Below, piece after piece: positions 6,503 through 59,360 of a stretch of 64,000 nucleotides of DNA (positions are counted from its first letter, which is position 1; each line of letters begins with the position of its first letter). Below the pieces are notes generated by a model that saw nothing but the letters and a program-made list of their open reading frames with translations, was not told the origin of the DNA and searched no databases. Made by a program: the position numbers and the translations under genes. Origin of the DNA: Syntrophaceae bacterium UBA2188 (GTDB lineage Bacteria > Desulfobacterota > BSN033 > UBA1163); assembly GCA_002327985.1 (NCBI GenBank), contig DCVM01000181.1, positions 24,528 to 88,527 of the forward strand. The letters are read 5' to 3'.

Positions 6503-6550
6503 ACCCCCACCCTCGCCCTCCCCCCTTGAGGGGGAGGGTGGGGAGGGGGG
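6503..6550. repeat. GC-rich hairpin repeat element (family copy a), between rpsI and rplM
   Basis: ccctccccc-ttga-gggggaggg 9-bp stem plus extended G/C arms; shares YTTGAKGGRGAGGG core with copies at 37355, 59172, 59314. Confidence 0.5.
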
Positions 6551-6563
6551 CTATTATAATTTT

Positions 6564-6995
6564 TTATTTCGGTTCAAGCGGAATCGGCTTTTGAGCCTCG
6601 TGGGGGTGATTCGGACCTGGATAGACCTTTAGCTTTCGAAGCATTTGACGGCCCAAACTATTTTTAGGAAGCATCCCTCTCACCGCCATCCTGATCATCT
6701 CAGTGGGTTTTTTCGCCAAGAGCTTTTCGGCATTGATCTCTTTAATTCCACCGGGATGACCCGTATGATGGTAATAGACCTTATCCTTCATTTTTTTGCC
6801 AGTGAGGATCACCTTCCCTGCATTGACCAGAATGACAAAATCTCCTGTATCCATATGAGGGGTATAAGTGGGCTTGTTTTTCCCTTTCAATATTTTTGCC
6901 AACTCTGTGGCCAGTCTCCCCAAAACTTTCCCCTTGGCATCCACCAGATACCATTGAGGGTTTAATTCTTCTTTTTTAGCTTGATAGGTTTTCAT
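6564..6995 (-). CDS. rplM: 50S ribosomal protein L13
   Basis: 143 aa; [29 protein letters not shown] canonical L13 N-terminus. Confidence 0.9.
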
Positions 6996-7058
6996 ATTAT
7001 CCCGTCACAAAAGATTTAATATATTTCCTCGGGGGTTGTCAATAATCCCTCTCAACCA

Positions 7059-7970
7059 TCACCTTCTTCTTTTCAGGGTAATATGGTGATGCCATAATAG
7101 GACAGTTGGGCTGGCAATATAGATCGTTGAATAAGTGCCTGATATGAGTCCAATGATCATAGCCGTTGTAAAATCGTGAATGACCGGTCCTCCAAAAAAG
7201 AAAAGAATAAGGATCACCATCATGACCGTGCCTGAAGTTAATATCGTCCTTCCGAGAGTCTCGTTGATACTAACATTAAAGATCGTCTCTAATTTCTCTT
7301 TTCTCATCTTTTTGATATTCTCTCTGACCCGGTCAAAGATCACAATGGTATCGTTGATTGAGAAACCAATGATCGTCATGATCACAGCAAGAAGAGGCAA
7401 TGAGAACTCTAAATCGAAAATAGAAATGGCGCCAAACGTGACAATAATATCGTGGATTAAAGCCACAATCCCCCCGAGGCCATAAGAGAATTGTCGAAAC
7501 CGAAAACCAACATAAATCAACATCCCTAAGAAAGAAAGTCCCATCGCCCATATGGCTTTTGTCTTTAAATCCTTCCCCACTTTTGGACCGACCACTTCGG
7601 CTCTGCGAACTTCCAATATCTTGTCTTTAAATCTCCCCTGAAGGGAGGTTTGGATGGTCTTCGATATCTCTTCTAAATCCTCAGAGGCCTTTTCCACTCG
7701 AATCAAGAATTCGTTTTCCTCTCCAAAATTCTGAACCATGGCATCTTTCAAACCCATGGCTCCCAGGGTGTTTCGCACTTCAGAGATGTCTACCGTTTGA
7801 GAAAATTTAATCTGGAGTAGGATACCCCCCGCAAAATCGACTCCATATCTCAACCCGCCATGGAAAAAGATGGAACCGAGGCTGATAAGAATCGCTATCG
7901 CTGAAACCCAGACGGTAAATTTCCTCTTTCCAATAAAGTCGAAACGGGTATCCGGACGGATTAATTCCAT
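7059..7970 (-). CDS. secF: protein translocase subunit SecF
   Basis: 303 aa, six TM segments, SecD/SecF family motifs; immediately downstream of secD. Confidence 0.85.
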   Translation of the reverse strand: MELIRPDTRFDFIGKRKFTVWVSAIAILISLGSIFFHGGLRYGVDFAGGILLQIKFSQTVDISEVRNTLGAMGLKDAMVQNFGEENEFLIRVEKASEDLEEISKTIQTSLQGRFKDKILEVRRAEVVGPKVGKDLKTKAIWAMGLSFLGMLIYVGFRFRQFSYGLGGIVALIHDIIVTFGAISIFDLEFSLPLLAVIMTIIGFSINDTIVIFDRVRENIKKMRKEKLETIFNVSINETLGRTILTSGTVMMVILILFFFGGPVIHDFTTAMIIGLISGTYSTIYIASPTVLLWHHHITLKRRR

Positions 7971-7991
7971 AAAAAAGATTCACCTCTGCAG

Positions 7992-9590
7992 TTAAATGCT
8001 CAGTTGCTTCACCTTCACTTGAAGGGTTAGAAAATCGAAGACCCATCTCGTGATATAAACCGCCGTAAAAATGTTAGCCAAAATTCCAATGCACAGGGTG
8101 ACTGCAAACCCTCTCACAGGACCTGTTCCGAATTGATAAAGGAGGATTCCTGCAATCAACGTGGTCAAATTTGAATCAATAATGGTTATAAAAGCCCGAT
8201 GATAACCCTGATCAATAGCCGCTCGAATGGTTTTTCCCCATCTCAATTCCTCCTTAATCCTTTCGTGAATCAAAATGTTGGCATCCACAGCCATTCCAAC
8301 AGAAAGGACCAGGCCTGCAATGCCGGGAAGAGTGAGGGTGGCACGGAAAATAGCAAGGGCGGCTAAGATGAAAATGATATTAAGGAGGAGGGCCATATCG
8401 GCAATGACTCCTGCCGCGCGATAATAAAAAACCATGAAAAGGGCGACGAGGGCTGCGCTAATGAGTGTGGAGAGGATTCCCTTCCGGATAGAATCCTGTC
8501 CGAGGGAAGGCCCCACGGTCCTCTCCTCGATGATCTTTACCGGTGCGGGCAACGCTCCCGCCCTGAGGACAATCGCCAATTCATTGGCTTCATCCGTCGT
8601 AAAACGACCGGTGATTTGAGCCCTTCCCCCTGATATCCTTTCTTGGATGACCGGGGCGGAATAGACCGTATCATCCAAAATAATGGCCAATCTCTTTTTC
8701 ACATTGGCCCCTGTGATCTGCTCAAATAATTTCGCTCCAATGTCATCAAACTCTAAAGCGATGTACGGTTCATGAAATTGTGACTCGAGGGCCACTCGGG
8801 CATCCTTGAGGACCTCACCGGTCATCAGGGTCTTCTCTTTTAAAAGATGAGGAACCTTTCTCACTCCTCCCGTCTTGGGGTCCACAACCCGTTGATAGAG
8901 AATGATATCCCCCTCAGGAACATTCCCCTTTAAGGCGGCCTCAAGATCTCCTTCCTCGTCCCAGAGTTTAAACTCTAATAGAGCGGTTCGCCCTATTAAA
9001 CTTTTTGCTCTCTCTGGATCTTTGATCCCAGGGAGTTGAATCAGGATACGATCTGTGCCTTGAAGTGTAATCTCAGGTTCGGACACGCCAAATTGGTCGA
9101 TTCGATTCCGGATGGTCTCTAAGGCTTGATCAATAGCACTCTTTTTAATCTGGTCTGCTTGCTTGCTATCCAGGACAAGAATTATTCTCCATATGCCTCC
9201 GCCAATCTCTGAGGCAGAGAGTTCATGCATAGCAGAATACCGTTCACTTAGAAGTTTCTCCCATTTCCCCTTTTCTCCTGAGACTTCCAGGACAATCTGA
9301 TCCCCCTTCTCTCTCTCCACTTTTCCAGCAGGGATGCCCCGATCTCTTAAATCATCCTTCAGATTATTTTTTATCCTTTCGACATAACTCTCTACCGCCT
9401 TGTCTGCTTCCGCTTCAAGAATAAGGTGCATCCCCCCCTGTAAATCGAGTCCTAAGTGGATCTTATCGGCTGGAATAACTTTTGTATACCATGAAGGGAG
9501 TTGAGAAGTGATGGTCGGGAGTAACAGGAGAATCGCAAAAAGAGTGATCGCCGCATAAAGGATAAATTTCCATCTTAAACTCTTTAACAT
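7992..9590 (-). CDS. secD: protein translocase subunit SecD
   Basis: 532 aa; N-terminal TM, large periplasmic domain, C-terminal 5 TM bundle (LSVGMAVDANILIHERI). Confidence 0.85.
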   Translation of the reverse strand: MLKSLRWKFILYAAITLFAILLLLPTITSQLPSWYTKVIPADKIHLGLDLQGGMHLILEAEADKAVESYVERIKNNLKDDLRDRGIPAGKVEREKGDQIVLEVSGEKGKWEKLLSERYSAMHELSASEIGGGIWRIILVLDSKQADQIKKSAIDQALETIRNRIDQFGVSEPEITLQGTDRILIQLPGIKDPERAKSLIGRTALLEFKLWDEEGDLEAALKGNVPEGDIILYQRVVDPKTGGVRKVPHLLKEKTLMTGEVLKDARVALESQFHEPYIALEFDDIGAKLFEQITGANVKKRLAIILDDTVYSAPVIQERISGGRAQITGRFTTDEANELAIVLRAGALPAPVKIIEERTVGPSLGQDSIRKGILSTLISAALVALFMVFYYRAAGVIADMALLLNIIFILAALAIFRATLTLPGIAGLVLSVGMAVDANILIHERIKEELRWGKTIRAAIDQGYHRAFITIIDSNLTTLIAGILLYQFGTGPVRGFAVTLCIGILANIFTAVYITRWVFDFLTLQVKVKQLSI

Positions 9591-9698
9591 CGAATAACGC
9601 TCCTATTTCTTCCCCTTGACAAAATGAAACCAAGGGCCTTCCTGCACCCTTGGGTTTTTAAACATAGCCCATCAAGAAACATTTTGCAAGTAAAAATT

Positions 9699-9749
9699 AC
9701 CCCCCACCTTATTCCTCCCCCACCAGCGGGAGGAGGAAAGGAGGGGGGC
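9699..9749. repeat. GC-rich C-run/G-run hairpin element (family copy b, degenerate), between acyl-CoA synthetase and secD
   Basis: ccccccaccttattcctccccc ... gggaggaggaaaggagggggg; imperfect inverted C/G arms; lacks the TTGA core. Confidence 0.35.
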
Positions 9750-9776
9750 AAATTTTAAAGCTGAAATAAAGGACGG

Positions 9777-11354
9777 TTACTTCACATCACTCCATTTCCC
9801 ATATTTTTCTCTTAAAATGCGATGGAGAATTTTTCCAGTGGGGGTCATGGGCATCTCTTCGTCCTTGATGAAATCCACTGTTTTGGGGATTTTGTATCCT
9901 GCAATCTTTCCCCTGCAATGGTCAATAAGCTCCTTTTCGGTCGCTGTCTTTCCCTGATGAAGGGTCACAATCGCCTTTACAGACTCCCCCCATTTTTCAT
10001 GCGGAATCCCGATCACAGCCACATATTTTACCGCAGGATGGGATCCCAAAAGATTCTCTACTTCTGATGGGAAGATATTCTCGCCACCGCTAATGATCAT
10101 ATTCGCTTTTCTATCCACCAAGACATAGTATCCATCTGGATCCCGGCAAGCCATATCCCCTGCTGAGAACCACTCTCCTTGAAAAACGGACTTCGTTTTT
10201 TCCGGATCCTTCCAATATTCCTTAAACACATGGGGAGTCCGCGAATAAAGTTCTCCCACCTCCCCATCCGGTACCTCTTTACCATGTTCATCTAAAATCT
10301 TGATTCGATCGGATCCCCAGATCTCTCTACCAATGGAGCCCAACTTCTTAAATTGTTCTTCGGGTCTGAGGAGGGTTACAAGCCCTGCCTCGGTTGAACC
10401 GTAGGCTTCCCAGAGCTCTGCATTTTTGAAATAATCCATGATGGCCATTTTAGTATCTTTCCGGGCGGGTGCAGAAGAGATCAGGAGTTGTCGCATCGAA
10501 CTTACATCATATTTCTTTTTAATTTCATCGGGTTGAGAAAGAATCATGATGTAATGGGTGGGGACAAGGGAAGTAAAGGTAATCTTCTCCTTTTGAATCG
10601 TTTTCAATAGATCCTCTGGATCGAAGCTGACCATGTTGTAGACAAAAACCCTTGCACTACAATAGGTATAGGTAAATGAATAATAGATTGAATTGATGTG
10701 GCACATTGGCATGACGAGCATGACGCAGTCATCCGGCCGGATGCCCGTATTCATTGCATTGAGAACATATTGGGCAAGATTGTTTTCATGAGTCCGGACA
10801 ACCCCTTTGGGCTTGCCGGTAGTCCCTGAAGTATACATAAGATTCCAGACATCATCTCCATCGACCATTACATCGGGTTCATCGGGTGAGGCTTCTGCAA
10901 TAATTTTTTCATAAGACTGGTAGCCCTCAGGGGTCGGATCATCTCCCCAATAAACATAATTTTCCGGCGGGATGGAAGATAGTTTATTACGAAAGGAATT
11001 AACCGTTGGAACAAAATCTTTTGAGACTAAAAAAGCTTTACATTCTGCATGGTTCACAACATATTCCATTTCAGGAGCTGCAAGACGAAACATAATTGGG
11101 ACGGTGATAAGTCCAGCTTTTGCAGAGGCCGCATAAATCTCCATCCATTCGATACAATTGTATGCCAGGATAGCAAACCGATCTCCTTTTTTTAGTCCCA
11201 TTTTTGTAAAGGCATTGGCTAACCGGCAGCTCCTGTCGTTCCATTCCTTGAAGGTCATCTTCCTGAACTTATCCCCTGCCCCTGGTTTATCAGGATATTG
11301 CGTTGCCATCATCTTAAGAACTGTTCCCGCTGTAATCCATTTACTAATCGTCAT
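9777..11354 (-). CDS. AMP-dependent acyl-CoA synthetase / fatty-acid--CoA ligase
   Basis: 525 aa; AMP-binding signature MYTSGTTGKPKGV; A10 Lys region PKTVDFIKDEEMPMTPTGKI. Confidence 0.75.
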   Translation of the reverse strand: MTISKWITAGTVLKMMATQYPDKPGAGDKFRKMTFKEWNDRSCRLANAFTKMGLKKGDRFAILAYNCIEWMEIYAASAKAGLITVPIMFRLAAPEMEYVVNHAECKAFLVSKDFVPTVNSFRNKLSSIPPENYVYWGDDPTPEGYQSYEKIIAEASPDEPDVMVDGDDVWNLMYTSGTTGKPKGVVRTHENNLAQYVLNAMNTGIRPDDCVMLVMPMCHINSIYYSFTYTYCSARVFVYNMVSFDPEDLLKTIQKEKITFTSLVPTHYIMILSQPDEIKKKYDVSSMRQLLISSAPARKDTKMAIMDYFKNAELWEAYGSTEAGLVTLLRPEEQFKKLGSIGREIWGSDRIKILDEHGKEVPDGEVGELYSRTPHVFKEYWKDPEKTKSVFQGEWFSAGDMACRDPDGYYVLVDRKANMIISGGENIFPSEVENLLGSHPAVKYVAVIGIPHEKWGESVKAIVTLHQGKTATEKELIDHCRGKIAGYKIPKTVDFIKDEEMPMTPTGKILHRILREKYGKWSDVK

Positions 11355-11490
11355 AAATCCACCCCTTTCTTAATCCCAATTCTTCTTCCTAAAGAAAAGA
11401 AAACAGGGATTAATAATTTCTTTTTGTGATTTTTTTTACATTCATTATCATTACGAAATAATTTTGTCAAGGAGAAGTTTTAAAAAAGAC

Positions 11491-11519
11491 TTGTTATTCT
11501 ATGGCTTTTATAGTATATA
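11491..11519 (+). promoter_or_regulatory. candidate sigma70-type promoter for the gcvH-hdr-flx cluster
   Basis: TTGTTA -17 nt- TATATA, about 37 nt upstream of the gcvH-like ATG; RBS AAAGGAGG at 11538-11545. Confidence 0.35.
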
Positions 11520-11555
11520 GGTAGGCATTTAAAAAAGAAAGGAGGATTGGAAAAA

Positions 11556-11975: not shown

Positions 11976-12044
11976 GAGCAAAAAATAATCCTTCATTGAA
12001 AAATGATGATGCCTATCTTATAAATAATTATACGCTCATCAATC

Positions 12045-12542: not shown

Positions 12543-13440
12543 CCCACAACACGTTGAATATACTCTTTTCCTTGGATGTACGGTTCCTGTCAGAGCCTTG
12601 AATTATGAGATATCGGCGAGGAGGGTAGCTGAAAAACTCGGCCTTCAACTCTCTGATGATCCAGATTTCAGTTGCTGCGGTTACCCCATCAAATCCGTCC
12701 ACCGCTATGGCTATCTTCTTATGGCAGCCCGCAATCTGGCCCTTGCTGAAGAAAAGGGGCTTCCACTCTGTACCCTTTGCAGCGCTTGTTGTGGTTCTCT
12801 CACTGAAGCCAACCATGAGATCAAGGAGAATGAAAAATTACGGAAACAGATCAACGAAGACCTCTTCGAGTGGGTGGGGTTGCACTATGAGGGAGGAGTT
12901 CGAGTCACTCATTTTATTCGAGTCCTAGATCAAGAAGTTGGGAAAAAAAGAATTTCAGAGCAGATCCGAACTGATCTCTCTCCCCTTCGTGTAGCTCCCC
13001 ATTATGGTTGTCACTATACCAAACCCTCCACCATTTACAACAAGACAGAAGATCCAGAGGATCCAAAAAGTTTGGATGAACTGATTAAAGTGACAGGAGC
13101 CCAATCCGTTCAATATGAGGATAAACTCCAGTGTTGCGGGGGGGGGGTGTTGGCTATTGACGAGCAGGTCGCTCTCGCCATGGCTCATCGAAAATTGGAT
13201 CATCTCAAATCCCAGCAGGCAGATGCCATGATCCTCATCTGTCCTTTCTGCAATGTCATGTATGAAGGGAATCAACGTAAAATTGAAAAGTCCTATCAAA
13301 CAGAATATAAAATGCCCATTCTCTATTATCCTCAACTTTTGGGCTTAGCCTTAGGATTTGAACCCAATGATCTGGGGATGAAAATGAACCGCGTGAAAGC
13401 GAATGAGTTGGTGAAGAAGATTAACAGGAGTGCGGATTGA
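12520..13440 (+). CDS. hdrB: heterodisulfide reductase subunit B-like (two CCG domains)
   Basis: CCGYPIK ... CTLCSACCGS and HYGCHYT ... CCGGGV ... CPFCN; 306 aa; GTG start overlapping hdrC. Confidence 0.8.
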   Translation: MKNRTEDSPQHVEYTLFLGCTVPVRALNYEISARRVAEKLGLQLSDDPDFSCCGYPIKSVHRYGYLLMAARNLALAEEKGLPLCTLCSACCGSLTEANHEIKENEKLRKQINEDLFEWVGLHYEGGVRVTHFIRVLDQEVGKKRISEQIRTDLSPLRVAPHYGCHYTKPSTIYNKTEDPEDPKSLDELIKVTGAQSVQYEDKLQCCGGGVLAIDEQVALAMAHRKLDHLKSQQADAMILICPFCNVMYEGNQRKIEKSYQTEYKMPILYYPQLLGLALGFEPNDLGMKMNRVKANELVKKINRSAD

Positions 13441-13441
13441 G

Positions 13442-21325: not shown

Positions 21326-21393
21326 TGGAATATTGGAAGAGTGGAAAAATGGAATAGTGGGTAACCCATTATTCCAACATTCCATTATTCCAG
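21326..21393. repeat. GGAAT-rich inverted-repeat element (family copy A)
   Basis: tggaatattggaagagtggaaaaatggaatagtgg ... ccattattccaacattccattattcca; the right arm is nearly identical to the reverse complement of the copy at 50781-50805. Confidence 0.45.
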
Positions 21394-21445: not shown

Positions 21446-24025
21446 ATGGATTATACTAAAGATCTGATCCAAATTGTAGGTGAAAAAAATGTTAAGACCG
21501 ATGAAATCGAACGACTCTGTTACTCCAGGGATCTCTCGGTCCACGAGGCCGTTCCGGATGTCATTGTCTTCGCCAATACCACAGAAGAAGTTTCAAAAAT
21601 TATGTCTTTGGCCCATCATGGAAAAATTCCTGTGACCCCAAGAGGATCGGGGACAAGTGCTGTAGGGGGTGCTTTAGCCGCCAAAGGAGGCATTCTGCTT
21701 GATTTAAGCAGGATGAACCGTATTCTCGAGATAGACAAAGAGAATGGATATGCGGTGGTTGAACCTGGCGTCATATGCAACCAGCTTAATGCAGCCATTG
21801 CCCCAACCCATTTTTTTCCTCCCGATCCTGGAAGTGCGAATCTCGCCTCACTGGGAGGAATGGTCTCAACCAATGCCAGCGGAAATCGGGCTCTGAAGTA
21901 TGGGACAACGAAGAATTATGTCTTGGGGCTGGAAGTGGTACTGGCCGATGCTCGAATCATTAACACAGGGTCGGTCTTGGGCAAGACTTCCTCCGGATAC
22001 GACCTGACCCAGCTCTTCACCCAGGCCGAGGGGACGCTGGGGATTATCACAAAGGTCATTCTAAGAATTCTCCCCGTTCCCGAATATGTTGCTTTTGCAG
22101 AGGCCCGATTTCCCTCTACCCTGGATGCCGGAAAGGCCGTTCGGGAGATCTTGACCTCGGGGATCGCCCTCTCTTCCTGTGAGATTTTGGATAAAGTGAC
22201 GATCGATGTGGTAAATAAAGCGATGGGACTCAACATCCCCGATCAAGTGGGATGTCTCCTCTTCATTGAAATCGATGGGAATAAAAAAGCTGTTCAGGAA
22301 AACATAGAAAAAATTAATAAAATTTGTAAAACCAATAATGGGATTGAAAATAGATGGGAGGATGACCCTGCGAAACGTCTTAAGATGTGGGCCGCCCGTC
22401 AAGGGATTGTTGCCTCTTTGTCGAAAGTCAAGAGAGGATCAAGGATGCAATCCATTATGGATGACCCGGGAATACCTATCACCAAAATTCCGGAAGCCAT
22501 TATGGAAATCAAGAAAATCTCGGAGAAACATCATCTCCCCATCAATACTTTTGGCCATATCGGTGATGGGAATATTCATCCCATCATCATCTCGGACCCC
22601 AGAAACAAGGAGCAATGGAATACCATCAAAGAAGTAGCCAAAGACTTAATTGACCTCACGATCCGGCTCCGGGGAACGCTCACCGCAGAGCATGGAACGG
22701 GAATGGCCAAATCGCCTTATATTAAGAAGGAGCTCGGGGAAACCCTCAAAGTCATGAAGGAGATCAAAAAAGCCCTTGACCCCAACAATATACTCAATCC
22801 GGGAAAGATGGGATTCGATGACTCCATTCAAGACATTTATGAGAATTTTGCCTTTTTACCCCTTGTTCAAAGGACTAACGAGATTCAATCCTTCGGGGAG
22901 GCACTGGATAATGAGATCATGGCCTGTATCATGTGCGGATTCTGTCGAGCCGGGTGTCCCACTTATGGGGAAACTTTCCTCGAATCCATCAATGCGCGCG
23001 GAAGAGTAATATTGGCCTATCACCTCCTCACCGGGAGACTGAAACCCTCGAAAGAACTGGCGGAAAGATTTTATAAGTGCACCACATGCTTGAACTGCAA
23101 TGCCGTCTGCCCCGCAGGTGTCCAGGTTTCCGATATTGTCCAGGCTGCCCGCCTACGGCTGGTGGAGGCAGGATACCTTCCCCCCATCCACGGAACGCTC
23201 ATGCGATCCATTGAAGAAAAAGGAAATCCCTTCGGGGAAGCCACAGAAAAAAGGCAGGATATCTATCCCACAGAGTATAAGCCTAAAGAAAAAGCAACCA
23301 CCCTTCTTTTTTTCGGGTGTGTGGCTTCCTATCAAGATATCAATGTCATTCCAAGCACCTTGAAGATCATGGATAAGGCGAAGATTGACTATACGACGTT
23401 GGGGACGGAGGAGCAATGCTGTGGATATATCTCTTATCTGGTCGGGGATGAAAAAGAATTTGAGAGATGTATCAAGAATAATAAAAATCATTTTGAACGG
23501 ATGGGTTTCAAAGAAATGGTTACCACCTGCGCGGGGTGCTATCGAACCTTTAAAGATCTTTACCCAAAACATCATGGGTTTCTCAGCATTCAAGTTTATC
23601 ATACGGTAGAATATTTGGAAAAACTCATCACGGACGGCAAGCTCATTTTCAAGAATGGGGCTAAAATAAAAGTGGCTTATCACGATCCCTGTGATATCGG
23701 GCGGCATATGAATATCTATGATCCACCCCGAAATGTCATCAGGGCGATTCCGTCGTTAGAATTGATTGAATTTCCTCACAACAGGAACCTTGCCAAATGC
23801 TGTGGCGGGGGGGGGGGATTGAAGGCCTTCGATACTGACATGAGTTTAGAAATATCTTACAAGCGCGTTCAGCAGGTCTCCGGTATAGGAGTTGACCTAA
23901 TTGTTTCCGCCTGCCCCTCCTGTAAATCTAACTTACAGGTGGCTGCAGCCAGACTTCGAAAAGAGAAAAAAGGCCGCATCAAGGTGATGGACATTACGGA
24001 ATTAGTGGCGGAGGCCCTCGCCTAA
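21446..24025 (+). CDS. fused FAD-linked 2-hydroxyacid (D-lactate/glycolate) dehydrogenase with Fe-S/CCG oxidoreductase domain (GlcD+GlcF/GlpC/HdrD-like)
   Basis: 859 aa. N-terminal FAD_binding_4 and FAD-oxidase C domain (GlcD-like: RGSGTSAVGGALA, HIGDGNIHP). C-terminal CIMCGFCRAGCPTY, CTTCLNCNAVCPAG, then two CCG domains (CCGYISY; CCGGGGG ... ACPSC). Confidence 0.75.
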   Translation: MDYTKDLIQIVGEKNVKTDEIERLCYSRDLSVHEAVPDVIVFANTTEEVSKIMSLAHHGKIPVTPRGSGTSAVGGALAAKGGILLDLSRMNRILEIDKENGYAVVEPGVICNQLNAAIAPTHFFPPDPGSANLASLGGMVSTNASGNRALKYGTTKNYVLGLEVVLADARIINTGSVLGKTSSGYDLTQLFTQAEGTLGIITKVILRILPVPEYVAFAEARFPSTLDAGKAVREILTSGIALSSCEILDKVTIDVVNKAMGLNIPDQVGCLLFIEIDGNKKAVQENIEKINKICKTNNGIENRWEDDPAKRLKMWAARQGIVASLSKVKRGSRMQSIMDDPGIPITKIPEAIMEIKKISEKHHLPINTFGHIGDGNIHPIIISDPRNKEQWNTIKEVAKDLIDLTIRLRGTLTAEHGTGMAKSPYIKKELGETLKVMKEIKKALDPNNILNPGKMGFDDSIQDIYENFAFLPLVQRTNEIQSFGEALDNEIMACIMCGFCRAGCPTYGETFLESINARGRVILAYHLLTGRLKPSKELAERFYKCTTCLNCNAVCPAGVQVSDIVQAARLRLVEAGYLPPIHGTLMRSIEEKGNPFGEATEKRQDIYPTEYKPKEKATTLLFFGCVASYQDINVIPSTLKIMDKAKIDYTTLGTEEQCCGYISYLVGDEKEFERCIKNNKNHFERMGFKEMVTTCAGCYRTFKDLYPKHHGFLSIQVYHTVEYLEKLITDGKLIFKNGAKIKVAYHDPCDIGRHMNIYDPPRNVIRAIPSLELIEFPHNRNLAKCCGGGGGLKAFDTDMSLEISYKRVQQVSGIGVDLIVSACPSCKSNLQVAAARLRKEKKGRIKVMDITELVAEALA

Positions 24026-24759: not shown

Positions 24760-25647
24760 ATGGTGCAGTTCCCAACAACGGTCTTGGAGGGGAAAAAACT
24801 GCCGAGGCTGATTTTTTCTGCTCAGCCTCCCGTCTTTCGAGGTCATCGGGAAATCTATCCCCTCATGAAAAAAGTTTATGAAATGGGGACCTGGTGTCTT
24901 GATCTTCCCTCGCCAAAACATCTCGAATCTTTTAGGGAGTTAAAAAATTTAACTCTTGACGAAACCCTGACAGGCCTCTGCCATTTAGAGGTGGAAACAG
25001 GAGCCTCTTTCTTAGGGAAACCCCTTCATCAATTTGAAACGAAAGTCGTCTCAACCATTAAAAAAAACCTGAGCCTTCCCCAATCGATTCGAAATCTGCC
25101 ACCCATTCCGATTGGGTCTGAAGTGTTCACTCAGAAAGAGATCGACCGGATTGGTTTTGATCCCCAACGTTTTGAAAAAGCCCTCTCTTTTTTTCATCCC
25201 GGGGAATCCCCTTTCGTCTTGGTTGGAGGAAGATATGGAGATTGGTTATTGGCTTTAGGGAGAATTGATCTTCTCAAACAGATGATGGCCAAGGTGAGAG
25301 AGAAAGGATTCACCCCTGTCTATTCGGGTCAGTGGGCAACCTTCTGTCTTCCAAAGGCTAAATCCCTGGATGTGGTGGCCTATGCTATCCCCATCAACAG
25401 GAAGTGGAGCTTTTTCAATCTGGATCAGGCCTGCGTTCTGATTAAGAAATTTGATAGACCCGTGATCAGTCTGAATCCATTGGCGGATGGAACACTGTTA
25501 AAGAATTCAGAGGAGGCTTTTTCGTTTCTCTTTAAAGATTTGAAGATCACTCTGGCGATTGCAGAGATTCATTCGGAGCAGGAGGTTGAGATCCTATTGA
25601 GCGCGGTGGCGAAAATACCTTCTCTCATCCCCCCCCGAAAAACATGA
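24760..25647 (+). CDS. hypothetical protein
   Basis: 295 aa ORF (GTG start), coding-like composition, no recognisable motif. Confidence 0.35.
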   Translation: MVQFPTTVLEGKKLPRLIFSAQPPVFRGHREIYPLMKKVYEMGTWCLDLPSPKHLESFRELKNLTLDETLTGLCHLEVETGASFLGKPLHQFETKVVSTIKKNLSLPQSIRNLPPIPIGSEVFTQKEIDRIGFDPQRFEKALSFFHPGESPFVLVGGRYGDWLLALGRIDLLKQMMAKVREKGFTPVYSGQWATFCLPKAKSLDVVAYAIPINRKWSFFNLDQACVLIKKFDRPVISLNPLADGTLLKNSEEAFSFLFKDLKITLAIAEIHSEQEVEILLSAVAKIPSLIPPRKT

Positions 25648-30625: not shown

Positions 30626-30682
30626 GGATGGAATGTTGGAATATTGCCATTTCTATATTCCATTATTCCAATGTTCCAAATT
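30626..30682. repeat. GGAAT-rich inverted-repeat element (family copy B)
   Basis: ggatggaatgttggaatattgcc ... atattccattattccaatgttccaaat. Confidence 0.4.
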
Positions 30683-37236: not shown

Positions 37237-37354
37237 ACGGTTGGCACGCCTGAGTCCGAACGCTTAAAGGTTACCGCTCTAAATCTTTTTCACCCGATTA
37301 CCTCTCCCTCTCTTCAAAGGGTCGGTTTATTTATATTACGACATAGTCTCTTGA

Positions 37355-37432
37355 TGGGGGAGGGTTAGGGAGGGGGTGATTAGGTCCCCCCCTCCCCTTC
37401 ATCCCCTCCCGCCAGGGGAGGGGAAATTTTTT
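37355..37432. repeat. GC-rich hairpin repeat element (family copy c), with terminator-like hairpin on + strand
   Basis: ttgatgggggagggttagggaggggg ... cccccctcccc ... cccctccc-gcca-ggggaggg then aaatttttt. Confidence 0.45.
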
Positions 37433-37517
37433 GCTGACATGAGAATTTTAGTTGTTTGTAATATTTGTATTTTGGCCATTTACCCTTACTTCGAATTTCG
37501 TGCTTCGAATTTAAAAA

Positions 37518-38840: not shown

Positions 38841-39977
38841 TTAGTACAGATATTTCACCCTGACTTCCTCAGAAAGGGAACTTTCATTCTTGAGAACAGA
38901 ATAATCCACCGCTGTGATGGCATACTCATATTCTTGCTTAAAAACAACATCTTTATCAAGATAGGTCTCCTTCGTCAAAGGACTCTCGTTCAACCTTCTA
39001 AACTCTTTTTCCCCAGGTTTTCTTCGATAGATATAATATCCCAGAAAGTCGGGCTCACGATTCCTTCTCCAATTCAGTTCCATCCCATCTTTAAGGGGGA
39101 TCGCCACCAGACCCACAGGAGAAACGGGTGCGGTGAGGTCTGTGGGGGTGACCGAAACCTCCAAGGATCCCTTCCCTTCTACATCCGTTTTGACCACTCT
39201 TCTCACGGCTCTCACTGAATAGATATATTTCTTTTCGTTCTCCACATTCAAGTCTGAATAATAAGTCGTTGTCACCGGATCCCGGTTCAAGGGCCGGTTA
39301 GAAAATACGTCCTCCTCTCCTCTTCGATAAACATGATAGCCTGTTGCCCCTTCCACAGGGTCCCAGAAGAGTTCTACTCTTTTATCTCCCCTCTCTCCAT
39401 TCACCCTCCTTGGCGCAGGGGGGGCGTCATCCCAGTAGACGGTGACTGGATTCGAAGGAGCACTCAGGTATCCTCTCCGATTGATTGAAATCACCTGATA
39501 GACATAAACTTTTCTTGCCTCTTGGTCTTCAAATAAGATCGCCATTCTTTTTTTTCTGCTCTCTTCCTTTCCACCCTCCTGACCTTTTTCCTTGCTCACC
39601 TTCTTACCCTTTTCCTTGCTATCTCTCTTTCCCTCTTCCTTGCTCTCCACCTTCCCCTCATAGACCACCCTGGCTTTCGTTCCGCATCCCTTACATTCTT
39701 CTCCAATAAGAATTCCTTCGGATCTTAAAACCTGAAAGCCTTCCAAATCGGTGAGAGGCGACTTATCTGTATTTTCTTTGGGGAAGGTCCATTCTAAAAG
39801 GAGACGGCTCTCTCGGCAGGTCGCCTCGAGATCAACGATTCTTTTGGGAACGATGGAATCCCAGGGCACAGGGGGACCCTTCTTGGCGCAACCAATGGCT
39901 AGGAGTAGAATGGTAAAAATCAATATAATTGTTTTCATGTTAAACACCTTGAAGTCTTTGTTACCTTCCTGTCTCAC
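38841..39977 (-). CDS. lipoprotein with Lys/Glu-rich tandem repeats and FN3-like domains
   Basis: Lipobox LAIGC; low-complexity KE repeats SKEEGKRDSKEKGKKVSKEKGQEGGKEE encoded by ttccttgct repeats at 39540-39665; FN3-like segments (VELFWDPVEGATGYHVYRR; MELNWRRNREPDFLGYYIYRR). Confidence 0.5.
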   Translation of the reverse strand: MRQEGNKDFKVFNMKTIILIFTILLLAIGCAKKGPPVPWDSIVPKRIVDLEATCRESRLLLEWTFPKENTDKSPLTDLEGFQVLRSEGILIGEECKGCGTKARVVYEGKVESKEEGKRDSKEKGKKVSKEKGQEGGKEESRKKRMAILFEDQEARKVYVYQVISINRRGYLSAPSNPVTVYWDDAPPAPRRVNGERGDKRVELFWDPVEGATGYHVYRRGEEDVFSNRPLNRDPVTTTYYSDLNVENEKKYIYSVRAVRRVVKTDVEGKGSLEVSVTPTDLTAPVSPVGLVAIPLKDGMELNWRRNREPDFLGYYIYRRKPGEKEFRRLNESPLTKETYLDKDVVFKQEYEYAITAVDYSVLKNESSLSEEVRVKYLY

Positions 39978-40020
39978 GCAAACTCCTAGTGTAGTGTCTC
40001 AGTAATCACTTTACAATGAT

Positions 40021-40085
40021 TCCAAGAGTTGTCATTCCTGTGAAAGCAGGAATCCAGAATGAAAACACTGGATTCCGGATCAAGT
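40021..40085. other. intergenic structured element with nested or alternative hairpins built from GGAATCC/GGATTCC motifs
   Basis: gtcattcctg-tgaaag-caggaatccag-aatgaaaacact-ggattccgga-tcaagt-ccggaatgac; three mutually exclusive or nested stems. Confidence 0.4.
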
Positions 40086-40221
40086 CCGGAATGACAGAAT
40101 GTGTAAAGTTTTTTCTGAAACAGGACACTAGCGGACCGCTACGCTTAAGGCAAATTTCGAATCCTACCCTTTCGCCTCAAGTACCGCTTTGCAGGACGCT
40201 CCTCCAGCCTCCATCGTTTTC

Positions 40222-50760: not shown

Positions 50761-50771
50761 GTATGGGCTCC

Positions 50772-50858
50772 CATTCATTTGGAATAATGGAATGATGGAA
50801 TAATGTGAAAGAATATTTTTTCTTTAACCCAATATTTCAGTATTCCGTCGTTCCATTT
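50772..50858. repeat. GGAAT-rich inverted-repeat element (family copy C)
   Basis: ggaataatggaatgatggaataatg ... cagtattccgtcgttccatt; the left arm is the reverse complement of the copy A right arm, with 2 mismatches. Confidence 0.4.
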
Positions 50859-50875
50859 TTCCTCAGGGAGGAGGC

Positions 50876-52528: not shown

Positions 52529-52719
52529 AACTTGTCCCTCTGGAAATCATCCTGTAGGGAGGTTCAATAACCCTGTCCTATAGGGGTACAGCAATAAGAG
52601 CAAGATAACCCCACTTTCCTCCAACACATCCCGAATCAATCTTATTTAAAACAGGTTCACTATACCCTACACTCATTTGTTTTTACAGAAAATTTATGAC
52701 TTCGCCATGGAGCAAAAAT

Positions 52720-52739
52720 TTTTGTCAGTTTTGACAAAA
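52720..52739. promoter_or_regulatory. perfect 8-bp inverted repeat TTTTGTCA-N4-TGACAAAA (candidate operator)
   Basis: Read directly; 55 nt upstream of the 52795 ORF start. Confidence 0.3.
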
Positions 52740-52794
52740 TGTATCTTCTGCTGACTTAAACTTTTCGATATCAGACCTCTTACTAAAAATTAAA

Positions 52795-54252: not shown

Positions 54253-54397
54253 GAAACAAACTTCGACCTCCCGTCTGCTTAAAACAAAATGTCAAAATGA
54301 ATCAAAATCTTGTAGGTTCATGGCCACGGGTGGACCCTTTCAATAAAGGGCATCTTCCATTGAAATGGAAGGACATCAAGAGTGAATAGAAATAGGA

Positions 54398-55072
54398 TTA
54401 TGGAAAAACCATCTTTTCGAGGGCTTTGACTCGAGCTTCCAAGGCATTCATTTTTTTCTCCAAATCGGCATAAGAGAATTTGATCATCGCACCCAATTCC
54501 TCTTTGACCTCATTCAACCCTCCTTTCACTATTCCATTGAGTGCCTTGACCTCTTCAACCGCTTTTCCAATACGCTCATCCAGTCTTTCTAATCCTGTCC
54601 TCACCCCATCCATATCCGCTTTTATTTCGTCTCTTGAATGGGCAAGTTTGGATAATCCTTCCTCCTTCATCACCAGAAAATTTGAATGCATCTCCTGTTT
54701 TGATTGAATGACGGCTGCACAAGTCTCTTCTTTGATCTTCTGGAGGGATGACTCCAATATTTGGATAGGTTGATAGGAAGAGGACTGTATCTCCTGTTTC
54801 AATTTTTCGATTCCATCCTTAAAATCATCTTGGAGGGGACCGATTTCCTCCTTTGTCTCTCTTCTCAATTTTTCCAACTCCTCTTTGATCTCCCCTATTC
54901 CTCCGAGGATCTGATTTCTATTTTCTTCTTTTAATTGACGAAAGTTCGACTTCATCTCCTGTCTCAATTTCTCTATATCCTCTTTCGAAGCCAATCCCAA
55001 TAATCTCTTATCCAACATTTCTTGGTCCATTGAGTTTTTTACCCCCTTCAGAAAGTAGCCTTTGAATATCAT
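54398..55072 (-). CDS. coiled-coil protein of unknown function
   Basis: 224 aa, repeated heptad-rich EEL/KEE segments (IEKLRQEMKSNFRQLKEE, IKEELEKLRRETKEE, IEKLKQEIQ). Confidence 0.4.
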   Translation of the reverse strand: MIFKGYFLKGVKNSMDQEMLDKRLLGLASKEDIEKLRQEMKSNFRQLKEENRNQILGGIGEIKEELEKLRRETKEEIGPLQDDFKDGIEKLKQEIQSSSYQPIQILESSLQKIKEETCAAVIQSKQEMHSNFLVMKEEGLSKLAHSRDEIKADMDGVRTGLERLDERIGKAVEEVKALNGIVKGGLNEVKEELGAMIKFSYADLEKKMNALEARVKALEKMVFP

Positions 55073-55375
55073 AGACGTTTTTAAATATCAATCTTTTTTT
55101 ATTCCTTTCTAATGCTTTATTTTTATTAGCATTATGGGTTACCTTCGACGATATCCTTAGCGTTCATTTTTCCCTTGACAAAAAAATATTATGTGTTATC
55201 TTTCACAAGACTTAATTTACCATGCTCTCTATCTACTTAAATTCTAAATTAATTTTGCAGATCTATTGGGAATGGGCCATTAGAAAAATTTAATGGGTAA
55301 TTGATTTTCCCTGTATCCAAATAGAAAGGGGGTGAATTTGACTCTCATTTTAAAAATTTTAAGAAAGGAAGGTGA

Positions 55376-58300
55376 ATGACATCTATGAAAATTACCCGAA
55401 GAACATTTTTGAAAGTTTCGGGAGCGACAGCCGCCGGGACAATAATGGGTGGCCTGGGGTTCGATCTGTCTCCGGCTGAAGTTTATGCCCAGGAACTTAG
55501 AATCAAAGGGGCGAAGGAAACAACCTCCATCTGCTGTTACTGTTCGGTGGGCTGCGGGATTATCGTCCATACTGATGCCAAAGGAAAAGTAATCAACGCC
55601 GAGGGAGACCCTGATCATCCTATCAGCGAAGGGGCTCTCTGTGCAAAAGGGGCATCGAGTTACCAGATTGCGGTTAACCCACATCGACTTCAAAAAGTAC
55701 TTTACAGGGCCCCCTACAGCAGCACCTGGAAAGAGGTAAAATGGGAATGGGCCTTAGAGAAAATCGCAGCGAATATTAAGAAGAGTAGAGATGCCAGCTT
55801 CATGGAGAAAAATGCAGCAGGTCAGGTGGTCAACCGAACCAACGGCATTGCGTCCGTGGGAAGTGCGGCCATGGATAATGAGGAATGCTGGCTCTACTCC
55901 AAAATGTTGAGGGCCTTAGGGCTCATTTATGTTGAGCACCAGGCCCGTATCTGACACAGCGCCACGGTAGCGGCTCTGGCAGAGTCGTTCGGACGCGGTG
56001 CAATGACCAATCATTATATCGATTTTAGAAATGCCGATGTAATTTTAAACATGGGCAGTAATGTCGCCGAAAACCACCCTGTCTCCTTTAAATGGATCCA
56101 GGCAGCCAAGGACAAAGGGGCGCTCTTCATTCATGTGGATCCAAGATTTACCCGCACCTCGACAAAAGCCGATATATTCGTAAGGCTTCGTTCAGGAACA
56201 GATATTGCCTTCCTGGGTGGCATGATCAAATATCTCATTGACAACAACATGTATGATGAATTCTACGTCAAGAACTATACCAATGCCTCCTTTATCGTAA
56301 ATCCAAAATATGGCTTCAATGACGGTCTTTTCTCAGGCTACGACTCAACCAAACGGAGTTATGATAAATCAACCTGGGCATTGGAAAAAGATGAGCAGGG
56401 AATTCCGAAAAGGGACATGACCCTCCAAGATCCACGCTGTGTCTTCCAGCTTCTGAAGAATCATTATTCCCGATATGCATTGGATAAAGTTTCTCAGATC
56501 ACTGGAACCCCCACAGCAGATCTTGAAAAAGTCTATAAAGCCTATGGCTCAACCTATGCCCCTGACAAAGCAGGGACTGTATTATATGCCATGGGGTGGA
56601 CGCAGCATACCGTAGGGGTTCAGAACATTCGAACCATGGCTATCATTCAAGATCTTCTCGGTAATATGGGAATTGCCGGGGGTGGAATCAATGCTTTGCG
56701 TGGGGAATCAAATGTTCAGGGTTCAACCGATGCGGGTCTTCTGTACCACATTTGGCCAGCTTATTTACCTACTCCGCGGTCTCCTTGGGCAACTCTTGCG
56801 GATTATAATAAGAACAACACTCCGGTTTCAAAGGATCCTCGAAGTGTCAACTGGTGGAAAAACCGTCCTAAATATGTTGCCAGCTTTTTGAAATCGATGT
56901 TCGGAGAGAAGGCAACCAAAGAGAATGATTTTGGATATGCTTGGATGCCCAAGCTCGAACCAGGCCAGGATGCTTCCTGGTTGAATCTCTTTGACGAAAT
57001 GTATAAGGGGGCCTTCACGGGTTTCTTTGCATGGGGAATGAATCCTGCTTGTTCAAGTGCCCATGCCGGAAAAGTTCGCCAGGCATTGACAAAACTTGAC
57101 TGGATGGTCAATGTCAATGTCTTTGACAGCGAAACAGGTTCTTTCTGGAAGGGCCCTGGCATGAACCCAAAGAAGATCAAGACAGAGGTCTTCCAATTGC
57201 CCTGTGCAGCCTTCTTGGAAAAAGAAGGAAGCATCAGCAATAGTGGCCGATGGATGCAGTGGCGATATAAAGCGGCCAATCCTCCTGGAGTGGCCCTCCC
57301 CGATGGCGATATTATATATGAACTGTTTAAAAAGGTTCGAGCCCTTTATGAGAAGGATAAGGGAACCTTGCCAGAACCGATTTTAAACTTAAAGTGGGAT
57401 TATGAAACCGGTGGCCATTTTGATATCCATAAGGTAGCCAAAGAGATCAATGGCTATGATCTCACCACCGGCAAATTGATGGCCAATTTTGTTGGCTTGA
57501 AGGATGACGGAACCACCTCTTGCGGCAACTGGCTCTATTCTGCCAGTTATACCGAAGCGGGTAACATGGCTGCACGCAGAAAGAAGACCGATCCAACTGG
57601 ACTGGGCCTCTATCCGGAATGGTCATGGTGCTGGCCACTGAATCGAAGGATCATCTATAACCGAGCCTCTGTTGATTTGGATGGCAAACCTCGTGATCCA
57701 AAACGACCACTTCTTAAATGGGATGCCGAGGGAAAGAAATGGATAGGGGATGTGCCTGACAATGCTGTTCCACCTATGGGAACAACTGGAGCCTACCCAT
57801 TTATTATGAAGCCAGACGGAGTGTCTTCACTCTTCGGCCCGGGCTTAAATGATGGACCCTTCCCCGAGCACTATGAGCCTCTGGAATGTCCGATCGAAAA
57901 GAATCTGATGTCCGGTCAGAGGATTAACCCGGCCATCAAAGTCTTCGAAGGAGGGCTTGATGCGTTTGCCACCTGTGATCCGAAGTATCCTTTTGTTTGC
58001 AGTACCTATCGGGTTACGGAACACTGGCAGACAGGAGTTCTCACTCGATGGCTGCCATGGCTCATTGAGGCCGAGCCACAGATGTTTTGTGAGATAAGCA
58101 TTGAGCTTGCCAAATTAAGAGGAATTAAAAACGGTGATAGGGTGATCGTTCAGACCCAACGAGGCAAATTAGAAGCGGTGGCCATTGTCACCTTCCGTTT
58201 AAAACCTTTTAATGTCGCTGGCCAAACGATTCATCAAATAGGAATACCATGGCATTTTGGCTGGCTCCATCCAAAGGATGGTGGAGAAAGTGCAAATTTA

Positions 58301-58420
58301 CTGACACCGACCGTTGGCGATCCCAATACCATGATCCCTGAATCAAAGGCTTTCATGGCCAACGTCAGTAAACTGACTAAACAACCAGCCCAACCAGCCA
58401 AAAAAACAACAAAAAGTTAA
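55376..58420 (+). CDS. fdnG: formate dehydrogenase catalytic subunit, selenocysteine-containing, Tat-exported
   Basis: Tat signal RRTFLKVSGATAAG. The two track ORFs 55376-55954 and 56003-58420 are in the same frame and are joined by TGA 55952-55954. The junction reads EHQARI-U-HSATVAALAESFGRGAMTN, the canonical Sec site of molybdopterin formate dehydrogenases; 1014 aa total. Confidence 0.9.
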
Positions 58421-58434
58421 AGGAGGTGACATAA

Positions 58435-59169
58435 ATGGCAGATAAATCCTTTTTCATAGATACAACAAAATGTACGGCTTGTCGGGGGTGCCAGATTGCC
58501 TGCAAGCAGTGGAATAAAAACCCTGGGACGAAAACCCTGCAGCAAGGAAATCACCAGAATCCCGCTGATCTTTCGGCCTCAACATTTAAATTGGTGAGGT
58601 TTAATGAGGTGGAGGTGCCAGGAGGAGAACCCCAATGGTTTTTCTTTCCTGATCAGTGCAGGCACTGTATGTCTCCTCCCTGTAAAGAAGTGGCGGATGA
58701 AAAAGCCAAAGGAGCGATAATCCACGATGAAAAGACCGGGGCGGTTATCTTTAACCCAAAAGTAAAGATAAAACCGGGGGATTTTAAAGAAGTCCGTGAA
58801 GCCTGTCCCTATGATATCCCAAGAATCTCTGGTGCGGGAATCATGGCAAAATGCACCATGTGTTTTGATCGCATCAATGAAGGGATGCTTCCCGCCTGTG
58901 TGAAGACTTGCCCAACTGGAGCCATGAATTTCGGAGATCGAAAAGAGATCCTGGAGAAGGCCAACAAAAGACTTGAAGAGGTAAAAGGAACCTATAAAGA
59001 CGCGATGTTGGCGAACACCGATGATGTTAGGGTGATTTTCCTTATTGTGGATGATCCCAAAAAGTATCACAAATTTGCAGTAGCAGATAATACGATTGGG
59101 ATCACGAGAAAAATGGCGCTAAAGCGTCTTTTTCAACCTCTTACCAGTTTGCGTCATATGATCGGATAA
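58435..59169 (+). CDS. fdnH: formate dehydrogenase Fe-S subunit (4x[4Fe-4S] ferredoxin-like), without a C-terminal TM anchor
   Basis: CTACRGCQIACKQWN, CRHCMSPPC, CPYDIP, CTMCFDRINEGMLPACVKTCPTGA. Confidence 0.8.
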   Translation: MADKSFFIDTTKCTACRGCQIACKQWNKNPGTKTLQQGNHQNPADLSASTFKLVRFNEVEVPGGEPQWFFFPDQCRHCMSPPCKEVADEKAKGAIIHDEKTGAVIFNPKVKIKPGDFKEVREACPYDIPRISGAGIMAKCTMCFDRINEGMLPACVKTCPTGAMNFGDRKEILEKANKRLEEVKGTYKDAMLANTDDVRVIFLIVDDPKKYHKFAVADNTIGITRKMALKRLFQPLTSLRHMIG

Positions 59170-59171
59170 AA

Positions 59172-59217
59172 CCCCCTCTCATCTCCCTCCTCTTTGATGG
59201 ACGAGGGAAGGTGGGGG
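59172..59217. repeat. GC-rich hairpin repeat element (family copy d1)
   Basis: ccccctctcatctccctcctc-tttgatgga-cgagggaaggtggggg. Confidence 0.4.
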
Positions 59218-59245
59218 TAAAATAGGATCAGGGGGGTGTTTTTTA

Positions 59246-59288
59246 GGGCTTGTTTCGGATGGGAGTCTCGAAACAAGCCCGTTTTTTT
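59246..59288 (+). terminator. rho-independent terminator after fdnGH
   Basis: gggcttgtttcg-gatgggagtct-cgaaacaagccc (12-bp perfect stem) followed by gttttttt. Confidence 0.65.
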
Positions 59289-59313
59289 CCTTTCCATCCC
59301 TCATCAACAAGTA

Positions 59314-59360
59314 TCTCCCTCTCCCTTGATGGGAGAGGGGCGGGTTGAGGGTGGGTAAAA
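59314..59360. repeat. GC-rich hairpin repeat element (family copy d2)
   Basis: atctccctctccc-ttgat-gggagagggg-cgggttgagggtggg; 9-bp stem ccctctccc/gggagaggg. Confidence 0.45.

Follow-up and report, generated by a model that had tools for sequence, protein, structure and literature searches.

Five GC-rich hairpin sites, S1 to S5, lie between genes in a 64-kb window of DNA from Syntrophaceae bacterium UBA2188 (contig DCVM01000181.1, positions 24,528 to 88,527), and by their sequence they appear to be copies, intact or decayed, of the dispersed G/C-block repeats known as BoxC, potential intrastrand triplex (PIT) or TM_ECO. The window means that whole stretch, coordinates count from its first letter, and its 62 open reading frames (ORFs) supply the neighbouring genes. 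The sites are non-coding, intergenic, multi-copy, present in some close relatives and absent from others, and without a gene linked to them in cis. What are such elements doing in this genome? The explanation that best covers the whole, and that we cautiously favour, is that BoxC-class copies have no dedicated regulatory role and are structure-forming DNA that makes the gaps they occupy prone to insertions and deletions.

The class itself is an established one. Holder et al. (Nucleic Acids Res 2015, PMC4666352), citing earlier work by Bergler/Bachellier and Hoyne/Maher, define TM_ECO as the G/C-rich intrastrand triplex motif CCCTCNCCC-N3-6-GGGNGAGGG-N3-GGGNGAGGG, with one mismatch tolerated, give BoxC and PIT as its older names, and count 3610 copies over 262 proteobacterial genomes. 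All sites in the window are modular, assembled from 8-9-nt blocks (CCCTCNCCC / GGGNGAGGG) in the order C-loop-G-N3-G, and the unit occurs alone, with a fourth (C) arm that gives a long hairpin (S1, S2, S5), or as an inverted pair (S3). The sites and their blocks are as follows.

6504-6550, no strand assigned: S1, a four-arm unit between rplM and rpsI, called from its fold, its pattern fit and its absence from relatives. C side: C2 CCCCCACCC (6504-6512), TCG, C1 CCCTCCCCC (6516-6524), loop CTTGA (6525-6529). G side: G1 GGGGGAGGG (6530-6538), TG, G2 GGGAGGGGG (6541-6549, plus one G).

9700-9748, no strand assigned: S2, a four-arm variant, called from its fold and its terminator position in relatives L007 and L010. 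C arm CCCCCCACC-TTATT-CCTCCCCC (9700-9721), loop ACCAGC (9722-9727), G arm GGGAGGAGGAAAGGAGGGGGG (9728-9748; blocks GGGAGGAGG-AA-AGGAGGGGGG); on the minus strand TAATTTTT then follows.

37335-37350, plus strand: accessory module ATTACGACATAGTCTC, a 16-mer 5' of the S3 TTGAT loop, in the place of the C stem.

37351-37423, no strand assigned: S3, two inverted units, called from their fold and from a block order identical to that of the composite elements in L218, L283, L332 and others. First part: TTGAT (37351-37355), G block GGGGGAGGG (37356-37364), TTA, G block GGGAGGGGG (37368-37376), 9-nt spacer (37377-37385). Second part: C block CCCCCCCTCCCC (37386-37397), TTCAT, C block CCCCTCCC (37403-37410), GCCA, G block GGGGAGGGG (37415-37423).

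59172-59218, plus strand: S4, a putatively decayed unit after the gene for the formate dehydrogenase (fdh) Fe-S subunit, called from block-wise alignment to the consensus. C side: C2-like CCCCCTCTC (59172-59180), C1 CCCTCCTCT (59185-59193), TTGAT (59194-59198). G side: G1 GGACGAGGG (59199-59207), AAG, G2 GTGGGGGT (59211-59218).

59295-59355, plus strand: S5, a canonical BoxC/TM_ECO unit with a degenerate fourth arm upstream, called from its pattern fit and E. coli matches. C side: C2 CCATCCCTCATCAA (59295-59308), spacer, C1 CCCTCTCCC (59317-59325), TTGAT (59326-59330). G side: G1 GGGAGAGGG (59331-59339), GCG, G2 GGTTGAGGG (59343-59351), TGGG.

Two sites tie the window to the class. S5 (59317-59351) fits the TM_ECO pattern with one mismatch, as does S1 on the minus strand (6504-6538; two mismatches on the plus strand), and the Watson-Crick hairpin CCCTCNCCC-N3-6-GGGNGAGGG is exact in S1 (6516-6538) and in S5 (59317-59339). 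The mismatch block of S1 on the minus strand, GGGTGGGGG, is the covarying mirror of GGGGGAGGG. A BLAST search with a 45-mer from S5, the only site queried, found matches in 3420 of 5426 complete E. coli genomes at 80-90% identity; among the matches listed the best were 85-90% identical over 39-41 nt, and all were chromosomal with no annotated feature beneath. The E. coli copy between yhjG and yhjE, for example, reads CTCCCTCTCCCTTTCAGGGAGAGGGCCGGGGTGAGGGTGG against CTCCCTCTCCCTTGATGGGAGAGGGGCGGGTTGAGGGTGG in S5, and an inverted partner unit lies about 120 nt upstream of it. Because of the one-mismatch fits and the E. coli matches of S5, we assign S1 and S5 to the BoxC/TM_ECO class. Judged by their blocks, S3 (variant block CCCCTCCC) would be a paired arrangement of BoxC-class blocks with a central C arm common to both inverted units (arm order G-TTA-G-loop-C), S2 (variant block CCTCCCCC) a variant, and S4 (variant block CCCTCCTCT) a decayed copy, whose blocks line up one after another with the consensus CCCTCCCCC TTGAT GGGGGAGGG YGA GGGTGGGGG TGAA with several substitutions.

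The likeness extends beyond the pattern. Here as in E. coli a C stem, a 3-6-nt loop, a G stem, a loop of about 3 nt and a mirror G stem follow one another; the E. coli K-12 copies are intergenic without exception and show no strand bias, inverted pairs are frequent and strains differ strongly in copy number (PMC4666352), and the elements described here are likewise intergenic, without strand bias, found in inverted pairs and strongly variable in presence among relatives. The identity between S5 and the E. coli copies includes the flanking CT...TGG, and the second loop of S3, TTA, is the "type A" loop of E. coli units. The differences are equally specific: the host is an uncultured Syntrophaceae-like member of the Thermodesulfobacteriota with 46% GC; most copies here carry CCCTCCCCC / CCTCCCCC / CCCCCCACC blocks and not CCCTCTCCC; loop 1 has 5 nt (TTGAT), whereas likely enterobacterial contigs in IMG/VR have 3-nt TGT/ACA loops; perfect four-arm hairpins (S1, S2) are common; and the S2 type has 5-nt T-rich loops between its blocks. 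Full-text searches of the literature for S1/S2-type strings found nothing relevant.

The hairpins stand out clearly from their surroundings. A first-pass annotation, made from the letters of the window, had placed GC-rich hairpins at all five sites, and each was borne out where it had been put. RNAfold minimum free energies on the plus strand are -45.7 kcal/mol for S1, -36.0 for S2 (-36/-41 for its fold), -47.4 for the two hairpins of S3, -25.2 for S4 and -34.4 for S5; the most stable hairpin in other gaps of the window mostly lies between -1 and -30 kcal/mol, the best outside the family reaching -31.4. The strict triplex-motif hairpin pattern matched only 6 times in 1.3 Mb of loci collected through LysA (from 31 close relatives and from lineages further off), which called for a looser C>G hairpin detector (9-bp stems, at least 8 pairs, at least 6 C:G pairs of the same polarity). 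On the window this detector returns five hairpins, in S1, S2, S3 (two) and S5, against 0.07 on average over 30 shuffles with composition kept per 200-nt block; S4 was not picked up by the strict detectors. Units stand on both strands relative to the genes, as the annotation had said, with S3 an inverted pair and S1 self-paired. Its conserved core fared less evenly. The string CCCTCCCCCTTGATGGGGGAGGG(C/T)GAGGGTGGGGGTGAA, which is the same as that core, does recur in unrelated metagenome contigs; S2 lacks it, however, and the 14-mer as written is not enriched in the window (4 matches with up to 2 mismatches, 8.1 expected), and because it matched no more often than chance we dropped it as a search pattern. 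Given the modular anatomy of the sites, the core corresponds to loop 1 (TTGAT or CTTGA) plus the first G stem.

Each of the five sites lies in an intergenic gap flanked by co-directional genes: S1 between rplM and rpsI, S2 between an acyl-CoA synthetase gene and secD, S3 between lysA and dapF, and S4 and S5 together between the fdh Fe-S subunit gene and fdhE, with an ordinary terminator (59246-59280) between the two. S1 begins about 14 nt, S2 about 28 nt and S4 2 nt after a stop codon, and S1 is placed between the rplM stop codon and the rpsI ribosome-binding site. No tRNA gene lies near the sites, and Rfam gave no match in the window or at 12 element-bearing loci beyond an unrelated group II intron in L296, where two adjacent matches to group II intron domains D1-D4 (6851-7061) lie on a contig that also carries an S2-type element.

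Comparison with syntenic relatives (given L-numbers) shows orthologous gaps both filled and empty, although the nearest of them, at about 80-84% DNA identity, are too distant to place exact insertion junctions; among species-representative genomes the best match to the host LysA is 91%, while metagenome contigs contain the window sequence without a difference. The rplM-rpsI gap measures 80 nt here with S1, 14 nt in L007 and 27-34 nt in L333, L335 and L337/L338, and its 208 nt in L010 are of unrelated sequence. Since S1 is missing from this gap in the syntenic relatives, we regard it as specific to this lineage. S2 occupies the exact place of an ordinary terminator hairpin in L007 and L010; the downstream TAATTTTTACTTGCAAAAT is kept, and the T tract and the TTGCAA...TATGTT promoter-like sequence that comes next are conserved. 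The metagenome relative L236 carries an element of the S2 type at this position, and L137 has a near-identical S2-type copy between Maf and YggS-like genes that lie 4 nt apart in the window. Next to S2, the secD leader (9630-9653, minus strand) contains a terminator-like hairpin, CCAAGGGTGCAGGAAGGCCCTTGG then TTTCATTTTG, that is nearly invariant in three lineages about 80% identical in DNA, with a promoter-like TTGCAA-N17-TATGTT immediately upstream of it (about 9660-9690); a role as attenuator or regulatory leader is conceivable.

The lysA-dapF gap also changes from lineage to lineage. Across 30 lineages it ranges from 11 nt in L158, the closest relative by LysA (91% amino acid identity), to 442 nt in the window. 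C/G units occur there in L136 (two), L139 and L145 and in none of the other lineages compared, and at least two other small repeat families occupy it elsewhere. One is a third small palindromic family (TTCGAAGCACGAAATYCGAAAYTCGAAACAA ... TTGTTTCGAGTTTCGATATTCGRATTTCGGATTTTC, about 150 nt), resembling a miniature inverted-repeat transposable element (MITE), in L135, L136, L137, L144, L149, L152 and L159, of which the window retains no more than a fragment (37480-37517); yet another family (ATTCCAAATTTCAAAGTTCAAATGTCAAAT...) fills the gaps of L154, L156 and L199. Farther along the window, the gap 39978-40221 carries a different hairpin repeat, GTCATTCCTGTGAAAGCAGGAATCCAG...CCGGAATGAC (-29 kcal/mol), where L136 and L142 have BoxC-type units.

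Copies are by no means restricted to this genome and its relatives. The family is interspersed, as the first-pass annotation proposed, and many further copies exist beyond those of the window: the core hairpin pattern is found in at least 120 IMG/VR contigs of 40-73% GC, often several times per contig and in many cases with a third arm. The 22-mer of the S2 C arm, CCCCCCACCTTNTTCCTCCCCC (21 specified bases), is found in at least 120 metagenome contigs of the Joint Genome Institute, representing at least 79 distinct contexts (contig GC 38-70% over all 120), and the G-rich partner arm, which was not part of the query, follows downstream in 64 of the 79: 58 of these have it within 20 nt, 6 at a greater distance. 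One contig bearing CCCCCCACCTTNTTCCTCCCCC belongs to candidate division WOR-3, as its LptD is 73% identical to WOR-3 proteins; on the 65%-GC contig L280 the adjoining ELWxxDGT-repeat protein matches many phyla and does not point to one of them. One group of copies is a composite whose blocks follow the order of S3, CCTCCCCC TTGAT GGGGGAGGG CGA GGGTGGGGG ... CCCCCCACC TTATT CCTCCCCC GCAA GGGGGGAGG; its GGGGGAGGGCGAGGGTGGGGGTGAA is identical to S1 on the minus strand, and it has the accessory 16-mer ATTACGACA(C/T)AGTCTC in common with the 5' side of S3. This 16-mer, with its one C/T position, also stands ahead of (T)TGATGGGGGAGGG in L215, L270 and L305, and its reverse complement is found within loops of L306, L228 and L264. 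An ORF caller placed 44 of the 79 metagenome copies inside ORFs; because it took the first start that follows a stop as the beginning of an ORF, and several of the contigs are rich in GC, we judged this result unreliable and did not use it. The putative viral contig L120 (IMG/VR, 67% GC) has eight CCCTCTCCC/GGGAGAGGG hairpins at 499-7047, paired within an intergenic composite module of about 110-140 nt that recurs at least 5 times at a spacing of about 1.2-2.4 kb, a mosaic of BoxC-type units that resembles a bacterial interspersed mosaic element (BIME).

Which structure, if any, constrains the third arm? The stem CCCTCCCCC/GGGGGAGGG is asymmetric, which allows a third arm to be scored as mirror (GGG[AT]GGGGG) or direct (GGGGG[AT]GGG). 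Among IMG/VR hairpins chosen by the hairpin pattern alone, with the flank ignored, 15 of 74 sides carry a mirror arm and none a direct one; at other loci the mirror form stands on 14 of 36 sides, again with no direct arm, so that overall the ratio is 29:0 over 110 hairpin sides. Purine-motif triads require A or T opposite A and G opposite G (PMC4666352), and an arm that is only ever a mirror fits these rules. A G-quadruplex would take either form and a plain hairpin needs neither, and the 29:0 result favours a triplex-type constraint over both. The elements resemble H-DNA mirror repeats in the mirror symmetry of their G-rich blocks, with A or T opposite A as in purine-motif triads, and differ from them in adding a Watson-Crick partner on the same strand, which would give an intrastrand hairpin plus third strand and not duplex unwinding.

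The same count bears on a reading of the sites as G-quadruplex or i-motif switches, in which unpaired G arms, with four G tracts and 1-3-nt loops, would affect transcription or replication. S1 GGGGGAGGGTGGGGAGGGGGG, S3 GGGGGAGGGTTAGGGAGGGGG and S5 GGGAGAGGGGCGGGTTGAGGGTGGG each have at least four tracts of three or more G, and the S1 arm is very similar to the G-quadruplex sequence of the c-MYC promoter. A direct repeat of the G block would serve a quadruplex equally well, yet none was seen; a complementary C arm that would out-compete quadruplex folding accompanies nearly every copy (64 of 79); and circular dichroism (CD) and nuclear magnetic resonance (NMR) on the E. coli unit reported a triplex (PMC4666352). 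We consider such switches highly improbable.

The first-pass annotation also suggested terminators or mRNA stabilisers, and one could imagine that the sites are selected at the RNA level, as intrinsic terminators or as 3'-end hairpins that shield upstream mRNA from exonucleases. The case is best at S2, which replaces the terminator stem of the relatives with the T tract kept and which alone qualifies as a terminator, by eye and by orthology; the predicted hairpins are moreover extremely stable, and S1, S2 and S4 start soon after a stop codon. The class as a whole does not follow. GC-rich stem-loops downstream of genes are what rho-independent terminators look like, but most copies lack a U tract (S1, S4 and S5 among them), one, S1, sits inside the rplM-rpsI operon, and a third or fourth arm is present; S4 and S5 flank a separate, ordinary terminator, and a T-rich tail follows only 6 of 26 four-arm copies elsewhere. 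A consensus terminator scan of the window sites flags a single hairpin, the second of S3 (37402-37424), on the plus strand and antisense to lysA and dapF. An RNA hairpin has no use for the mirror third arm, RNA does not form purine-motif triplexes, and the E. coli copies showed neither promoter nor terminator activity in tests (PMC4666352). As a general account, then, RNA-level selection seems unlikely to us, even where a single site such as S2 could act in a terminator's stead.

The first-pass annotation had compared the sites with repetitive extragenic palindromic (REP) elements and BIMEs, and part of that comparison stands: the family is interspersed, intergenic and palindromic, occurs both singly and in inverted pairs or clusters, and is gained and lost between close relatives. 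Like REP and BIME sequences, the units are short, imperfect, multi-copy palindromes in mosaic clusters of a kind that can stabilise upstream mRNA, and their presence differs among relatives. Would they then be palindromes that a REP-associated tyrosine transposase (RAYT), with its gene in another part of the genome, moves in trans? Single-strand transposition of the Y1/HUH kind would agree with the missing target-site duplications. The association with a RAYT that the annotation put forward for checking was, however, not seen: Pfam finds no transposase, integrase, RAYT or Y1 family among the 62 window ORFs, and no RAYT or Y1 protein recurs within 2.5 kb of the 79 contexts, where the largest gene cluster covers only 5 contexts. 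The flanks have no fixed insertion target, and no GTAG-like 5' tetranucleotide stands by the palindrome in the window copies or in the 26 four-arm copies; without such a conserved tetranucleotide the units do not have REP architecture. REP families are usually species-specific, whereas the arms here are identical across phyla, and they are homopyrimidine/homopurine, strand-asymmetric and mirror-symmetric. The units match BoxC, and BoxC copies proved unconnected with transposons, phages and plasmids in a BLAST check in E. coli (PMC4666352). Membership in a REP family is thus not supported, and mobilisation by a distant RAYT strikes us as very unlikely. A MITE derived from a DDE transposon does not fit either, as there is no flanking direct repeat at the 26 four-arm copies or the window copies and no cognate transposase near the 79 contexts.

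A more open-ended alternative is a sequence-specific system not described so far, in which a widespread host or mobile protein recognises the blocks and copies them or uses them, for instance in nucleoid organisation or recombination. Arms, loops (TTGAT, YGA) and the trailing TGAA are exactly conserved over many contexts and GC contents, as is the accessory module ATTACGACA(C/T)AGTCTC; copies occur both in Thermodesulfobacteriota and on a WOR-3 contig, and the IMG/VR contigs with the core hairpin (at least 120) point to a possible vehicle. Set against this, the 79 contexts yield no candidate protein in cis, the low complexity of the G/C blocks means that their identity may be partly convergent, and the IMG/VR contigs include misassigned cellular DNA. 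We hold a general system of this kind to be doubtful. Slightly less doubtful, though still speculative, is the narrower proposal that the CCTCCCCC/CCCCCCACC sub-family (S1, S2, S3 type) is a single actively spreading element or recognition site across distant phyla, with an undiscovered trans-acting system that copies or binds it and possibly ferried by phages.

We return, then, to BoxC-class copies as structure-forming DNA. The repeats would lack a dedicated regulatory role and persist as neutral or selfish sequence. When DNA becomes single-stranded in replication, repair or transcription, a copy could fold into a hairpin or a purine-motif triplex, and slippage and repair errors at the folded DNA could turn occupied gaps into indel hotspots. 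A transcribed copy would form a very stable RNA hairpin whose consequences may be incidental: S2, by its position, could substitute for a terminator stem, and S1 and S4, standing after a stop codon, could be barriers to 3' exonucleases that do not end transcription of the operon. Occupied sites in E. coli are flanked by excessively variable intergenic sequence (PMC4666352), and among the functions proposed for such elements, that of a recombination or instability site, also named in the first-pass annotation, best fits the literature and the indel pattern seen here.

Several observations weigh against this account. S2, S4 and some of S3 do not fit the pattern in its strict published form. The CD and NMR triplex of the E. 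coli unit forms in vitro in isolated single strands, and in E. coli a triplex was detected neither in duplex DNA nor by dimethyl sulfate footprinting in vivo (PMC4666352), so that the instability mechanism is itself inferred. The variable gaps also hold unrelated repeat families, and the C/G units may therefore mark hotspots and not cause them. Finally, exact identity over 22-40 nt of arm, even loops included, between contigs of 38-70% GC from at least two phyla is hard to square with purely neutral decay and points to active spread or sequence-specific selection.

Other features of the window deserve brief mention. The gene for the formate dehydrogenase alpha subunit (55376-58420, plus strand), upstream of S4 and S5, has an in-frame TGA at 55952-55954 that splits it into two same-frame ORFs in the context ...RI-TGA-HSATVAALAESFGRGAMTN, and a hairpin of 64% GC and -22 kcal/mol lies directly 3' of it (55955-56002); very probably the TGA encodes selenocysteine, the hairpin is its selenocysteine insertion sequence (SECIS) element and the gene is no pseudogene. 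Homopolymer runs occur within ORFs (G10 at 13138-13147, G11 at 23807-23817, C8 at 25629-25636), where composition predicts about 0.3-0.5 runs of 8 or more; the ORFs encode a CCG-domain HdrB-like protein, an FAD-oxidase/CCG fusion and an unannotated product, and the runs could be slippage-prone or assembly-sensitive spots. A second, AT-rich intergenic family consists of TGGAATA(A/G) octamers and their complement, forming hairpins such as TGGAATGTTGGAATATTG...CATTATTCCAATGTTCCA (21326-21392, 30629-30678, 50780-50805). Tandem repeats lie at 2117-2150, 1348-1368 and 39575-39659: CGGATTG x4.9 and AAGTTA x3.5 are intergenic, and a 24-nt unit repeated three times lies inside the ORF at 38841-39977.

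In conclusion, the BoxC/PIT/TM class has been described before, and the find is mostly an ordinary one, with some blocks oddly identical across distant bacteria. New are the lineage of the host, a CCTCCCCC/CCCCCCACC sub-variant that has TTGAT as its loop and occurs in four-arm forms, orthologous sites both filled and empty, the third-arm count of 29:0 for the mirror, and the identity of particular strings across phyla. For annotation, the sites account for spurious pseudo-peptides of the "PLEGEGG" type and for inflated intergenic gaps in such genomes. Where these repeats come from, how they spread and what they do are questions that date from the 1990s, to which the window adds a lineage far from E. 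coli, and because arm-plus-loop strings are common to different phyla, horizontal spread or a common recognising factor can now be tested.

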